Shown here in pieces: positions 1 to 50,799 of a stretch of 64,000 nt of DNA. A program made the translations under genes and the position numbers. Positions within the stretch are counted from its first letter, which is position 1, and every line of letters starts with the position of its first letter. Source of the DNA: Eledone cirrhosa (lineage: Eukaryota); NCBI GenBank assembly GCA_964016885.1, contig OZ024745.1, positions 35,898,001 through 35,962,000 on the forward strand, read 5' to 3'. Below the pieces are notes generated by a model. The model had not been told where the DNA came from. It was given only the letters and a program-made list of their open reading frames with translations, and made no database searches.

Positions 1-1595
1 TTGTTCAGCGCATCGGTAGGGGTTCTCCTACATGAATATAACGTAGTGGCCATACTCGAAAACAAGTTAGCAGCCACCATATATATATATATATATATAT
101 ATATATATATATATATATATATATATATATATATATACCTAAAGATTGTGAGAGAGAACAAGAACCAAATAATGTATAGAGGAACGCAAAAATAGATAAA
201 TGAATGACAAAAGAAAAACCAAGTAATATAAAAATATCTATTTACAAAAACAAAAAGAGAAACACAATCAGAATGACAGACACGGAACTGAAACGAAATG
301 AACGAATGAAATGAATAAACAGAAGGAAGAGCTTACGTGTAGACGAGTTGGTAGTGGGTTGAAGAAAATCTAAAGAAAAACTATACCCATATATATATAT
401 ATATATATATATATATATATATATATATATAAGCGGGAGGCAGACTAATACTTATGAGCTAGACATTCTGAGATCAAAAGATTTCTAGTGTAGTCATGTA
501 GATTTGAACTTTTGTTTTTATTGTCAGCGTTTATGCAATGTCTTTTTCCGTTGTATGTGATATCGTCACGAACATTGATATCATAAATACTATTGCTAAG
601 TCAGTATAACACCAATGTCTATTGTATATTGTGCTTACTGTATTCGCAATATGTTTATTTTGTGGATTTATATTATTCAAATCACATTCGTGTATTTATA
701 TTTACATACAGTATCACGTAGCAAGAGGTAAAGACACGTACATACAAAAACCTAAGAAGAAACGCATGCACATACACATGTTTACTTGTAAATTAATGTA
801 TTTCCATTTCAGTCATCGTATGTACACACAGACAGAGACACAGATAAAGACGCAGACATACACACATATGTGTGTATGTTTGTGTGTGTCTGTGTCTCTG
901 TTTGTGTGTGTGTGTGTGTGTATGTGTGTGTGTGTGTGTGTGTGTGTGTGTGTGTGTGTGTGTGTGTGTGTGTGTGTGTGTGTGTGTGTGTGTGTGTGTG
1001 TGTGTACAAATATACATGCTTATTATAATAGATATTTTGAATGTATATCTATCTATTTAGATAACCGAAAGATTACAAACTCTTCTCTCACTTTATATCA
1101 ACACACCCGAAGTAACTCCTACTTCGTCTCCCCTCTCCCCAATCATATTGGAGGAGTGAATAAAATAGAAAGGGTGAGAAAATATTTGCGTATGTGTGTC
1201 TGTGTTGTATTTTGGTAGTCGCCTGGGCTGTCTGGTGTTCGGTGCCAAACAATACTTCCTCGCATGTAAGGTGACGTCAATGTACATCAGATAGGCTAGT
1301 TGTTCAACTATGACGCGCAAACATCACACACATTTCATCATAGGCTCGTTTCATGGAGGCTAATCTGTAGCTAAAGATCTAAGACGTAAACTCCTAGAAA
1401 TATCAGCCAAGTTCTCCGAGATCATAATGTAATGTGATTAACTAGGGAAGAACAAATTGGTAAATGTCATCTTATATCTACACAATATATATATATATTA
1501 TAAATATAAGCTATCGTCGTATTTTGACTAAAAAAAATTATTTAGCCTGATAGTGGGGTTAAGAACCCTCGGAGAAATGGAAAAAAGATGAGTAT

Positions 1596-1666
1596 TGACG
1601 TAGATGGGAGTCGAACCCAGATCTTTGGTTATCCAGACCACTGTACTACCATTACACCAAAACATC
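1596..1666 (-). ncRNA. tRNA-like module (71 nt, Gln-like body, GGA at the anticodon position), repeat-borne
   Basis: GATGTTT TG GTGT AATGGTA GTAC A GTGGT CTGGATA ACCAA AGATC TGGG TTCGACT CCCA TC TACGTC A. A and B boxes present; acceptor stem imperfect. Confidence 0.7.
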
Positions 1667-1870
1667 ACCCGTCTTCTTCCATTCAAATTAGAAGCTATAA
1701 TCTTAGCAACTGTAATGTCAAGTAAGAATATTTTCGAAACAGCGAGCGAGTTTGAAATTATAAATATAAGCTATCGCCTTATTTTGACTAAAGAAATTAA
1801 AGAAATTATTCTTACTTGACATTACAGTTGCTAAGATTATAGCTTCTAATTTGAATGGAAGAAAACAAGT

Positions 1871-1941
1871 GATAGGTTGGTGCAATGGTAGCACAGTAGT
1901 CTGGATAACCAAAGATGTGAGTTCGACTCCCATGTACGTCA
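1871..1941 (+). ncRNA. Second copy of the tRNA-like module
   Basis: Inverted copy of 1596-1666 with TGGTGCAATGGTAGCAC and GAGTTCGACTCC boxes. Confidence 0.65.
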
Positions 1942-3457
1942 ATACTCATCCGTTTCCATTTCTCCGAGGGGCCTTAACCCCACTATCAGGCTAAATAATT
2001 TCTTTAATTTCTTTAGTCAAAATACGGCGAGAGCTTATATTTATAATTTCAAACTCGCTCGCTGTTTCGAAAATACTCTTACTTGATATATATATATTGT
2101 ATATATATATATATATATATCAGAGGTATATATTGAGTTAGAAACTCAAAATAGTCTCTTACAATTAAATAGCTCAAAGAAAGAAGTTTTTTCTGAGCCG
2201 TGTACTATAATTGTATATACCAGAGAGATAAACACAAATATAAACATACATGTGTTCGAATTGTAAGGGACCAAGTTCACTAGGGTGAACAAAATTATAT
2301 ATATATACATGAGATGAGTTTTTTGCTCGAATATCAACTCAGATGAGTAGATGGGGCCGGAGTTGTGTCTAGCATTTGCATGGATCCTGAGCCTCTCATC
2401 TGTGAAATGGTCGTAACTCTGTATAATCAAGAAATATCATAATGTGAGACCTCGTTTTACCTTAATATATGTATGTGTGTGTGTGCGTGTGGGGGGTGGG
2501 GGGTTAGTACATATGAAGGCACGTCACTATATTTCCATACTTCAATTTATTAAATAACGAATACTATGCACACTTTAGATGTGCTAACACGTCAACGTAT
2601 GATAAGTCTGAAAGTAACCAGTCCACCCAATCCAATCGTTAACTCTCTAGTACGTCGCAGCTCTGGATATACTTCCGTATAACAACGTTTGCTGTATCTG
2701 ACAGCTTATATTCGTTCCCGAAAACAATATATGCCTCGCTCTGACCAATTCTGCCAAGCCATGACGCAGCCCTTCCTTCAAAGCCGAAAAATATAACAAT
2801 AATAAAACTAAAATATGTATAGCGATGAAGAAATGAAATGTTTAATGGATGAATGAGATCAACTATTTCATAATATTTCATATATCTCATTTATTAAGAG
2901 AGCATGAAATCTTTGGTCCGTTTGCGTAACCCGGAGATTTCTTTGTTTCATCATTATTCTAGAGACACTGTTCGAAGATTACATTTTTACCTAGTTATAC
3001 AACCATTTAGATTGCTCCAAAACTAACTACCCAACAATAAACATATATTGAAGAAACATAATTACAATATCTGATTCATTTCAGTGAGTCAATGGAATTG
3101 TGTCAGTGACTCGATGGTGAGGCTCATATACGCAGATGGACTATTCATAGTATATATTTCAGGAAGAAATAGAAACAGAAAGAAAATATTTTAATGGTTT
3201 AGCCGGAAAAACATCGACCATAAAAATATGTATAATAAAACACACACACACACACACACACACACACACACACACACACACACACACACACACACACACA
3301 CACACACACACACACACACACACACACACACACACTCACACACACACATACACCACACACCACACACCCACAGATACATATGTATATATATATATATATA
3401 TATATATATATAGATATATAAATATATATACACATATATATACACATATATATATAT

Positions 3458-48000: not shown

Positions 48001-48082
48001 ACTTCCCTGATGACGAAATGCTTCTCCGTAAGTTTCTTCGGAAACTCTGTTTATTCCCTTTCAGAAACTAATTAGTTGGAGT
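48001..48082 (+). ncRNA. Type I HHR
   Basis: ACTTCC-CTGATGA-cGAAAtG..CcTTTCa-GAAA-CTAATTAG-TT-GGAGT. Confidence 0.75.
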
Positions 48083-48532
48083 GAAATTTTAGTAAGTAAG
48101 TTAATTTTTATAATTTTCTTATTTTACGTTTTCATATTATTGTTCTGCATCCCCATGCATTGAACCACAAAGTTACTAAGACAAAACCTATATATTTGCC
48201 GGCATAGGTATGCATCTGTGTATATATATGTTAGTAGATATACTAATTCTTTATAATTATCTCCAAATTATTTTGTCGAGCCAAAATTGGCCAAAACTGC
48301 TACTATAGTTCATAGTAACGGTTCGGCTGCTGTCTTCTTAACAAACCACTCCTCACTGATTAACCTCGATGTCACGTGATTGATTCTTTTGAATTTGCCA
48401 CCGACGCAGTAGGCAGTGATTTTTTTCAATGGCTTGGAACTTAGTCCACGCTTTGCTTTTTTCCATCCACTGAATTATTTTTGTATAAGTTCCCTGTGTC
48501 CACGCATTACCTGGAAACTTAGCTGAGAATAG

Positions 48533-48614
48533 ACTTCCCTGATGACGAAAGGCTTCTCCGTAGGTTTCTTCGGAAACTATGTTTATTGCCTTTCAGAAAC
48601 TAATTAGTTGGAGT
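48533..48614 (+). ncRNA. Type I HHR
   Basis: ACTTCC-CTGATGA-cGAAAGGC..GCCTTTCa-GAAA-CTAATTAG-TT-GGAGT. Confidence 0.8.
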
Positions 48615-50799
48615 GAAATTTTAGTAAGTAAGTTAATTTTTATGATTTTCTTATTTTACGTCTTTCATATTATTGTTCTGCATCCCCATGCATTGAACCA
48701 CAAAGTTACTAAGACAAAACCTATATATTTGCTGGCATAGGTATGCATCTGTGTATATATATGTTAGTAGATATACTAATTCTTTATATATATATATATA
48801 TATATATATATATATATATATATATATATATATATATATATATATATATATATATATATATATATATGCGTAGTTAATGGAAGAAATAAAAATCTTCGAA
48901 AAACTATGGCAGACTAACAAAATAGTTTATAGAATATATGTTGATGCTGAGGGTATATACATGGTGAGCATAAAGTCTAATAGATGCCATTTTGTTATAA
49001 ACCTTCCTGTGGAAGAGTAAATGTACAACTACAGAAAAAGACTTGAAATGTATATATTAAAATAATGAAAAAGTAATATCGCAAATAGTATCCTTGATAT
49101 GGTATTTCATAATCAGGGAAATAATTTATATTCTCCTTGTATAAAGGAAATTGCATAAGCAGTATTGGTGTTTATGCTAATATTATATTACGATACTAAT
49201 CGGAGAACACTGTTCTTTCCAAACAAATTACATAATTCAGAATCATATAAGGCTATTAAGAAGGGAACATACTAACACAAATACTATTCGTTGACAAATC
49301 ATCTGAATTGGATTGCAGATATTAACAGAGAGAATGTGAGTAGTATCTCTATAAACAGTAAATACCTATGTACAACACAAGAATATGTAGTTCATATACA
49401 ATGATATAACATAATCTAGTATGGAGGAAAAGTATGAAGCCGGTTTTGCATCAACCGTACATGAACAGGAAAGAGGAATAATTAAACTAGCAGTAGAAAA
49501 TAAATATGATATAGCAAGGACATACTGAACAGAAAAATAAACCACAAGAAGGCAATTATCTAACATGGTTTTCTAAATATGAAGCAAGTTGTATATAACA
49601 AAGGACAAGGAACAAGAGTCTGTAAAGTGGCAACATGATTCTGATCTGTGATAAAACTGAAGATGTACCAGAGAATGAACATTCAAAATCATATAAGTAA
49701 GACATCAAAAGAACAAGTAAAAAATATAGCAAATTTAAGATGAATGGCAAATAAACTCTTTTATGGAAACCAGCCAACAAGGATTAATAAATCTCATTGT
49801 GACATTGCCAGCATCCAACTGCTGTTAGCTAAAACAGAAAGTGAAGTGTTGATAGTAGTATTTCAAATCAATACATCTACACCTGACATTATCAAAAAGC
49901 CATAATAACGATGTCTCATACAAGACAAGATGCAACATTCGACTAAAAAAAATCACACATCCAAATTAAATGGAAAATATAGAAAGCCTAATAACAAGTA
50001 TGATAGTATCAGTAAAATGAAACGATTAATACATTCAGCATTGTAAACCTGGACTCGATAGTGTATATACAGACATAAACGGATAGTTTTATAAAACGGA
50101 CAATATATAGACACATGAAAACTAAAAATATACGGCGTACGGATGAACCGAACATTCAATAATGATCAACTAATTACCAAAACTAACAGAAAATGAGCTA
50201 AAACGTAATATGCCTTCATCAATAGAAAGGTGAACAATTGCACTAGCATAGACATAGCAATCCTTTGTTTGTGTCATAGATATGATTCATGTCCCGTTTT
50301 CCCTGTTCTTAACACTGTCATTTCAACCTCAGCTTTGTAGTTTTGTTTTTATTCACATTAGTATTATGCATTCCCCGAGTCCTATAATTCCTGTAGTCCT
50401 ATAAATGATATTTCGAAATGGATTTTAAGTTTCACTACATTCAGGATAGATATAATAACTCAATGTCGTGTGTGTTATAAAACGTCAATATTTTGTTCTT
50501 GATTTTCTGCTTGATAATTCATTTAGAACCTGAATGTAAATACTGTAATTGTATTGAAACCGTTGGAATATTTATATCTCTTTATATTTTGTAGAGCTTA
50601 AATCTTTTTGATATTATAATTGAAAGGCTACATATTGCATCTTTATACTTCCGTTCATCTGTTAAATTTGCACAGTCTTGTTCATAAATTCCTCAGTCAG
50701 GCCCATCGTAGATATTCCTTCACAATACAATTTAGACGGAGAAAATCTACCTGATTTTGTTGCCAATCGATAATAACAATAATTGTTTCATTTATTGGC

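Follow-up and report, generated by a model that had tools for sequence, protein, structure and literature searches.

Non-coding hammerhead-bearing repeats of the octopod Eledone cirrhosa carry a Penelope-like insertion footprint and probably depend on Hydra-clade elements

A window of 64,000 nucleotides from Eledone cirrhosa (contig OZ024745.1, positions 35,898,001 to 35,962,000, numbered here from 1) was analyzed for short non-coding repeats with hammerhead ribozyme (HHR) motifs, which lie in (TA)n tracts beside coding Penelope-like elements (PLEs). Four families, designated A (14311), B (18602), C/C2 (47971, 32538, 20372) and D (33160), read in their sequence as closed units of 420-593 bp without a credible open reading frame (ORF) and with type I HHR motifs. 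Their insertions carry the two-ended footprint of PLE reverse transcription, and mobilisation in trans by PLEs of the Hydra type is highly probable. With less assurance, A-D are likely to be non-autonomous retrozymes copied in trans by the Hydra reverse transcriptase (RT) and endonuclease (EN) from a longer-than-unit, probably circular, RNA. The further labels used are H1 for the coding element at 21013-25738, E (17043/36755/38148), M (3458/16171) and T (1498).

The insertion structure of A-D was determined in two samples. The first comprised the first 30 pattern matches per family on one contig (120 loci) and was unbiased for structure; the second comprised 100 newly fetched regions (36 B, 24 C, 20 D and 20 A, a subset only for A, C and D), taken in genomic order from listed places 31-100. 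After duplicates were merged and arms running off a locus were removed, 222 HHR-containing arms were left. In every family tested, coding and non-coding, two fixed 3' ends were found downstream of the HHR cleavage site, here called the short and the long end. These were located at +57/+144 in H1, +20/+103 in E and +15-28/+94 in M among the coding families, and at ~+217/+273 in A, +80/+245 in B, +63/+178 in C (+84/+201 in C2) and +81/+197 in D, with a short TA-like overlap between each end and the unit. In these pattern-picked loci, 206 of the 222 A-D arms finished at one of the two sites and 204 abutted TA. Among 101 inverted pairs, 74 joined a short and a long end, one joined two long ends and none two short ends, while 26 had an atypical end, mostly in family A, where an AT-rich segment blurs the alignment. 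The short-plus-long rule held in the 100 newly fetched regions (40/57). Together with variable 5' truncation, partial tandems, an inverted copy and an optional 3' tail, all present in A-D and in T, this footprint is the PLE tail, attributed in PMC11167929 to RT initiation at two internal sites and to nicking of both target strands. The Poseidon element PAc of that study (Frangieh et al. 2024) likewise has two adjacent internal start sites which define the tail and lie downstream of the HHR, and both strands are nicked at AT-rich DNA. The PAc start sites are described as lying inside the ORF and being non-homologous to the target, whereas those found here lie in non-coding RNA and have the short TA-like overlaps.

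Self-BLAST and Tandem Repeats Finder (TRF) bore out the coordinates, (TA)n flanks, partial-tandem and inverted structures and unit periods that a sequence-only reading of the window had given, with direct and inverted repeats and TA flanks seen by both. The period was 424 bp in A (14506/14930), 560 bp in the window copy of B (591-593 bp in the family), 532 bp in C, about 555-556 bp in C2 and 485 bp from HHR to HHR in the window copy of D (486 bp in the family). That the units lack credible ORFs was also upheld: the longest ATG-initiated frame in the circularised A-D units covered 51-97 amino acids, and unit GC was 0.36-0.43. More than one unit was covered by 107 of the 222 arms, all aligning lengthwise to the repeated unit, and more than two by 17; family A arrays reached 6 or more units, and in some A-D loci HHR core matches stood consecutively at unit spacing. 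The layout is thus that of a short, non-coding, circularly permuted tandem with a type I HHR motif per unit and at least two consecutive units in some loci, as in retrozymes, and not an LTR-internal-LTR arrangement; the (TA)n flanks make a target-site duplication unreadable. Past the long end, A-D run through their own spacer back to the HHR, and no sampled copy extended into an ORF. Exact core motifs counted across the 3.0 Gb assembly numbered 13,893 for A, 7,502 for B, 9,418 for C and 741 for D, about 31,500 together, with reversed controls of 0 each.

In the window, family A occupies 14311-15081, with an inverted arm at 14311-14503 (short end), a plus-strand arm at 14506-15081 (long end) and a unit of 420-424 bp. 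Family B occupies 18602-19265, with an inverted arm at 18602-18678 (short end) and a plus-strand arm to 19265 (long end). The C2 insertion (20372-21027, minus strand) consists of an arm from 21015 to 20372 with the long end, a 555-bp unit and an HHR at 20649-20568, and of an inverted arm of ~15 nt at 21013-21027 with the short end. Positions 21013-21028 were also considered as a C2-Hydra chimera, which was rejected: the ~15-nt inverted arm belongs to C2 itself, and a Hydra element has inserted after it at the TA. Family C is present as a truncated, inverted copy with short and long ends (32538-32838) and as a plus-strand partial tandem of 1.5 units of 532 bp with the long end (47971-48787; HHRs 48003-48081 and 48535-48613). 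Family D forms a minus-strand partial tandem of 1.35 units with the short end (33160-33808), with C3-G8 HHR cores at 33302 and 33787 and a fully paired motif at 33307-33221.

HHR calls were based on a relaxed type I descriptor, which accepts C3-G8 or U3-A8 cores and a long stem II, and on stem pairing at the family level. Nine type I motifs were detected in the window compared with a mean of 0.1 in 30 dinucleotide shuffles. Stems I-III were paired in nearly all distinct sequences (A pattern 32, including 3-4 motifs from related families; B 26, C 43, D 58, E 17), with double changes in stem I of the A pattern set and in stem II of C. Stem III was palindromic in A, B and C, and in B, C and D the core was more conserved than the remainder of the unit. 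The U3-A8 core found in B and E is a variant already reported for Schistosoma PLEs (PMC4209133). The window motif of A (14770-14820, plus strand, core at 14776) has an insertion which displaces stem I, and that of B (18960-19050, plus strand), with a U3-A8 core, a 59-nt stem II insert, a palindromic stem III and a GUC site, has a stem I mismatch. Cores were truncated or broken in the copies at 32538, 17043, 38148 and 3458, and the T copy at 1498 had none, so that the statement that nearly all elements carry type I HHRs stood for the excess of motifs and failed for these copies. The covariance-model scan proposed along with it was unproductive: Rfam returned no hammerhead in the window at E<=1, only noise from miRNA models on TA repeats and palindromes and two tRNA matches.

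Several observations concern further HHR-bearing families. The stretches 15145-15483, 15551-16028 and 36272-36337 resemble the 3' ends of three further flank HHR families (stem III GTAC, GAAC and CAATTG), and 25 HHR clusters with 2 or more copies were counted in 1.54 Mb of fetched, element-biased loci. Loci L074 (minus strand, near 284) and L245 contain another HHR tandem, with units of about 280 bp and CGCG as stem III, which probably represents one more non-coding family. Families related to A at lower identity, with stem III CTAG, an AT-rich spacer and a similar long-end hairpin, were found in L316 (plus strand, near 2215), L146 and L411:2049-2400.

The coding element at 21013-25738 had been read as a Naiad starting at 21029. 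Judged by its motifs and a by-eye comparison, and not by a tree, it is assigned to the Hydra clade, because the RT precedes a C-terminal EN, DKT and CxCX5C are present, and HHRs are present. An internal inversion splits this copy. The RT part (RWR, DKT, YRDD) lies at 21013-22656 on the minus strand, inverted relative to the EN part, with a pseudo-LTR (pLTR) upstream of the ORF at 22763-23689 (minus strand; HHR 22877-22812). The C-terminal part lies at 23664-24323 on the plus strand and contains the CxCX5C linker, a GIY-YIG-type EN (YVGST, RYNNH), CxxC and CxH, motifs which were compared with those in PMC8557442. It is followed by a 3' untranslated region (UTR) at 24324-25738 (plus strand) with an HHR at 25630-25695 and a short 3' end at (TA)n. 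The protein motifs of the window copy were RWR, CNCRDRSKC, YVGST, RYNNH, CDLC and CKH, with EN last; KSDKTNNLY matches DKT exactly, RWR is a conservative variant of RWK, and by eye the protein blocks agreed with those listed for Hydra-1_Obim. According to PMC8557442, Naiads have an N-terminal EN and DKA and lack a canonical HHR, while Hydra elements have a C-terminal EN, DKT, RWK, CxCX5C, CxxC, CxH, HHRs and (TA)n targets; PLE anatomy is restated in PMC8969392. The N-terminal EN is absent from the window element, and DKT and the two HHRs stand in place of the other Naiad traits. Compared with the Hydra-clade PLEs described there, including Hydra-1_Obim of Octopus bimaculoides, H1 has in common the C-terminal EN with its CxCX5C linker, CxxC and CxH, DKT, RW(K/R), a canonical-type HHR near the 3' end, the (TA)n preference, the pLTR, inverted copies and the tail. 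It differs by its size, with about 3.9 kb for the unit and 1.4 kb for the 3'UTR (the Hydra elements described there are generally <3 kb), by RWR instead of RWK, by tails of about 60-165 nt instead of 30-40, and by the coexistence of several Hydra families, one of them very young.

Outside the window, four intact copies (L191-L194) had the RT motifs first and the EN motifs C-terminal, in uninterrupted frames of 745-755 codons (intact ORF ~737 amino acids). The best-scored 150 EN matches in the genome were 99-100% identical; from these matches and the uninterrupted frames in four loci it follows that a young, intact Hydra helper exists. Terminal H1 ends were at TA in 6/6 cases. The intact ORF had 157 homologues, for the most part unnamed, the best named one from Argonauta hians, and had no match in sequence scans against Pfam and PDB. 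The window also contains a second, frameshifted Hydra-like ORF (29507-31506, plus strand) and a third, decayed coding copy (34223-36083; HHR 34336-34270 on the minus strand, RT remnants 35218-35933).

The proposal of five non-coding families was sustained for A-D and failed for the fifth. Family E proved to be the 3'UTR/pLTR of a coding Hydra family, with EN upstream in 12 of 25 loci chosen by similarity and the ORF start past the long end in one more (L120), which makes 13 of 25 linked to EN or ORF. Its window copies are inverted 3' fragments at 17043-17324 and 36755-37450, the latter with a U3-A8 HHR at about 37340-37435 (plus strand), and a diverged 3' fragment at 38148-38258 (minus strand). 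The mini pieces at 3458/16171 and 36380, regarded before as non-autonomous parasites, are reassigned as well. Of 30 family M loci chosen by pattern, one (L310) continued into a Hydra ORF, as did L368; the 3'UTR of M is longer than the 1.5 kb flank, so the absence of an ORF in flanks alone proves little. Exact core matches of M numbered 27,663 genome-wide (reversed control 0). In the window, M is represented by an inverted fragment of the 3' end with decayed HHR cores (3458-3563) and by a 5'-truncated coding copy whose short 3' end carries an HHR (16171-16223, minus strand). The inverted 3' fragment at 36380-36697, with an HHR at 36598-36662 (plus strand), belongs to a family 83% alike to the H1 pLTR. 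Beyond the long end, H1, E and M reached the ORF within about 45-60 nt, and no closed non-coding unit was found in E or M. The sequence-only reading had asked whether its families extend into a PLE ORF and had named being just the pLTR of an autonomous PLE as ground for dropping them; among the sampled copies this was so for E and M, and none of A-D extended in this way. Of its proposal of parasites of Naiad RT/EN, mobilisation of A-D by a PLE survives as very likely, and Hydra takes the place of Naiad as helper.

Family T has the same anatomy with no ribozyme detected. Its window copy (1498-2085) is an inverted insertion of a 270-bp closed unit, in which the left arm (minus strand) runs to the short end and the right arm (plus strand) to the long end. 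ARAGORN and the Rfam tRNA model identified a tRNA-like cloverleaf in the left arm (1595-1667, minus strand) and a second copy at 1871-1941 (plus strand), scoring 35.2 and 29.6 bits in Rfam; the family unit scored 42.4 bits (gathering 29), and ARAGORN called 13 of 15 copies at a relaxed threshold, with 9 calls at default. The cloverleaf sits in an extended hairpin followed in most copies by a T5 run. No CUGANGA/UUGANAA core was found on either strand of the T unit from L330, and no ribozyme family was returned by Rfam at E<=5, a weak negative as Rfam also missed the real HHRs. Among 22 insertions, 17 were inverted (12 short plus long, 5 atypical) and 5 had an arm over one unit; 34 of 39 ends abutted TA, and exact 22-mer matches numbered 2,349 genome-wide (reversed control 0). 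T arms were short (median 152 bp compared with 440-660 bp for A-D), and 22 of 28 stopped at unit positions 200-262, in or just past the tRNA, as would be expected if RT stalls at the hairpin. T shows that the PLE footprint needs no ribozyme.

RNA polymerase III (Pol III) terminates at T runs. In T, the T5 run separates the tRNA from the start sites, which argues against a simple Pol III promoter role, and a processing role for the cloverleaf is speculative. It is conceivable, though rather unlikely, that the Hydra RT/EN reads a short structural start signal instead of the sequence of a family and so drives unrelated RNA circles, including T, in which the cloverleaf would replace the HHR as processing signal; host RNase P/Z or a cut in the anticodon loop, followed by ligation, would then free unit-length templates. 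If so, T would represent a tRNA element that depends on PLEs and differs from SINEs, from TRIMs and from retrozymes. In being short and non-coding and in having a tRNA-like sequence with A/B-box-like motifs, T agrees with SINE2 elements in their usual description and with Helenus TRIMs (PMC10886601). Unlike these, it has neither an LTR-internal-LTR layout nor a fixed 5' tRNA head, and it shows a circularly permuted 270-bp unit, PLE dual ends and the T5 run between tRNA and RT starts.

For A-D, the preferred course of events would begin with the transcription of tandem copies as multimers. These would be cut into monomers by their HHRs, perhaps acting in pairs since stem III is palindromic in A, B and C, and the monomers may be closed into circles by a ligase of the host, for example RtcB, as deduced from PMC7229834. 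In a (TA)n tract, Hydra EN would introduce nicks in both strands, and reverse transcription would initiate at a pair of internal positions lying downstream of the HHR cut; the fixed ends and TA-like overlap are observed, and the enzymology is borrowed from PMC11167929. The cDNAs would run back through the HHR junction, with up to 5 or more units and variable stops observed, and two arms, one short-ended and one long-ended as seen in the copies, would be joined head to head. Since the arms cross the cleavage site, their templates were uncleaved or religated there. Within arms, units were discordant at 3.0-6.5% of segregating non-CpG sites compared with 30-37% between insertions, and private divergence within arms was close to that between insertions. 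Among 779 ordered differences, 9 recurred in 3 or more insertions, 5 of them at CpG and none as linked blocks. This haplotype sharing fits rolling-circle copying of one monomer, and a circular template is consistent with the data. Circular monomers were more stably folded than shuffles (z -2.0 to -8.2, the value for A being inflated by internal AT palindromes). In the first set, 13 of 35 arms had their 5' end at the upstream cleavage site, but only 2 of 45 did so in the new set, and this clustering was rejected. No RNA dataset was listed as containing a unit of family B, the only family tried. In four contig sets of unrecorded kind the B head-to-tail joint was present in all, and one 621-letter contig closed on itself at a depth of 7.8; these joints were given no weight as circle evidence, as tandem DNA at trace coverage yields the same.

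The closest competitor, doubtful but to be taken seriously, keeps A-D as Hydra parasites and makes the template an uncleaved linear multimer from young homogeneous arrays, with the HHR dispensable or acting elsewhere. Such arrays are also expected to produce the haplotype sharing, and every HHR-containing arm crosses a cleavage site, which is true by selection. HHR mutants left PLE insertion unaffected in vitro, and unprocessed RNA was the main PAc substrate (PMC11167929); T makes partial tandems as well (5/22 insertions over one unit), so that tandems by themselves are no sign of circles made by a ribozyme, and non-autonomous Chlamys elements, most without canonical HHRs, are described as building head-to-tail arrays (PMC8557442). 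Linear source arrays that had aged should, however, hand on ordered unit differences, of which no linked blocks were found; the stable fold of the circular monomers and the abundant circles formed by mollusc and axolotl retrozymes (PMC7229834) also speak for the circle. A helper from outside the Hydra clade, whether a Naiad, Neptune or Poseidon PLE or a different retroelement, is improbable. (TA)n is preferred by octopus Naiads too (PMC8557442), and A-D have no sequence homology to the sampled Hydra UTRs; but cephalopod Naiads are described there as old remnants without canonical HHRs, compared with the young, intact Hydra found here, and a YTC...GAR hairpin is common to Hydra and B/C/D ends. 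Least probable of all, A-D would be 5'-truncated pLTR/3'UTR fragments of unsampled autonomous PLEs, which is exactly what E and M proved to be, and the long M 3'UTR leaves little force to the missing flank ORFs. The arms over one unit all align to the repeated unit, arrays contain 5-6 or more units, no collinear ORF was found in the sampled loci, and a rare parent element would not render the units themselves coding.

Certain observations weigh against the retrozyme reading of A-D in addition to the T tandems, the behavior of HHR mutants and the fit of young linear arrays. The HHRs are atypical: stem II inserts of 50-59 nt occur in E as well as in B, C and D, positions 10.1-11.1 are occupied by U.U in A and by C.A in C, and the cleavage site of C reads GUU. 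The A core is not conserved above the rest of its unit. Among tested Xenopus retrozyme dimers, only 1 of 9 cleaved (10.64898/2026.07.22.740005). When A-D and T were compared by blastn at sensitive settings with the coding families and UTRs sampled, further families of the genome being outside the sample, AT-rich noise only was obtained, and no likeness to the ends of an autonomous partner was found in A-D or T. Among the (TA)n-targeting PLE clades, the helper search covered Hydra only. A tblastn search with Hydra proteins returned no match collinear with any A-D arm in the sampled loci; matches close by either pointed the wrong way or lay on the far side of TA runs, as read in sequence for L389 and L368 and judged from coordinates for the remainder.

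The hairpin just 3' of the start sites was present at 12 of 16 Hydra and B/C/D ends compared with a background of 8%, under a definition made post hoc; in other families it was present at 7 of 21 ends compared with 12%, several of these ends being already known. It is a lead only. A CTC(C/T)...GAG motif directly follows the RT start sites, after the long end in B, C and D and after the short end in coding families. The tails of B, C and D were mutually similar (z 3.3-5.8 in end-anchored windows), hinting at an old common lineage.

Seven junctions joined different families without a TA run: L039/L197 (E-A, at E's cleavage site), L078 (E-C), L108 (D-E), L042/L321 (D-like-H6), L432 (A-E), L360 (H6-C2) and L411 (C2-A). 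Two more joints lacking TA, L112 and L352, were left out of this count, being a same-family joint and a CA repeat. At L197:5517-5570 (L039), a 40-nt E HHR fragment abuts the 5' end of an A array, and the joint lies no more than 2-3 nt from the cleavage site predicted for E. At L108:2050-2610, an E insertion starts with a 34-nt D short end and encloses a stretch of ~200 bp resembling LINE RT coding sequence by eye, a possible template switch. These junctions suggest template switching between coding and non-coding RNAs and were not counted as support; they may also be independent insertions, because the three two-armed cases are short-short, short-short and long-long, against the short-plus-long rule.

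Other repeats were noted in the window. TA-flanked palindromic fragments at 38447-39168, 32893-33102 and 13006-13363 are probably inverted 3' ends of other PLE-type families. A dispersed SINE-like repeat of ~190 bp occurs at 7221-7423, 10535-10858, 16877-17032 and 32166-32353 and was common in the fetched loci too. A 314-bp tandem repeat at 39776-40411 has two copies 89% alike, with no HHR detected. ORF remnants at 61600-63180, 42523-43298 and 43921-44637 look by eye like pieces of hAT/SPIN-type transposase and of non-LTR elements (RTE-like, CCHC/REL-like).

Non-LTR retrozymes of metazoans have been published together with the circles that they form in coral, mussel and axolotl, and PLEs have been put forward as the elements that may move them (Cervera & de la Pena 2020, PMC7229834); a 2026 preprint (Li, Clavereau & Pollet, 10.64898/2026.07.22.740005) argues that retrozymes are non-autonomous PLE derivatives. 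Like A-D, the retrozymes of these two reports are non-coding tandem units of <1 kb with GC <50% and one type I HHR per unit, and PLEs are the proposed mobiliser. A-D differ in having long stem II inserts and, in B, the U3-A8 core, and they are known here from sequence alone. They have no detectable homology to the sampled coding pLTRs, whereas 24 of 57 Xenopus families in the preprint matched transposable elements, mostly PLEs. T lacks the type I HHR of retrozymes. Chlamys elements of the MRC1 type (PMC8557442) are, like A-D, non-coding PLE dependants with pLTRs and head-to-tail multicopy insertions. The Chlamys dependants are described as generally sharing 3' sequence with autonomous partners, most Chlamys elements being without an HHR; A-D have HHRs and no detected partner homology, and T resembles the Chlamys dependants in lacking an HHR but has a tRNA fold. 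A literature search, with Repbase, Dfam and subscription journals outside its scope and prior entries therefore possible, returned no account of octopod retrozymes, Hydra-dependent non-autonomous elements or tRNA-bearing PLE dependants. The concept itself is published; new here are a probable helper from Hydra in place of Naiad, evidence for mobilisation by PLEs at the level of single insertions, and a sibling family with a tRNA fold and no HHR.

For repeat annotation, the abundant A-D and M escaped the Rfam hammerhead models in the window, and copies of T trigger tRNA gene calls. In the published reports cited, the case for what moves animal retrozymes was built on co-occurrence and on homology of pLTRs (PMC7229834, 10.64898/2026.07.22.740005). 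In E. cirrhosa, the likely retrozymes bear the PLE reverse-transcription footprint insertion by insertion, with two 3' ends, short and long arms, 5' truncation and (TA)n, beside a young helper with intact ORFs. This footprint and the young intact helper make the helper/parasite pair, with its predicted start sites, testable by the published PAc assay (PMC11167929), and T provides a natural control for whether the ribozyme matters.

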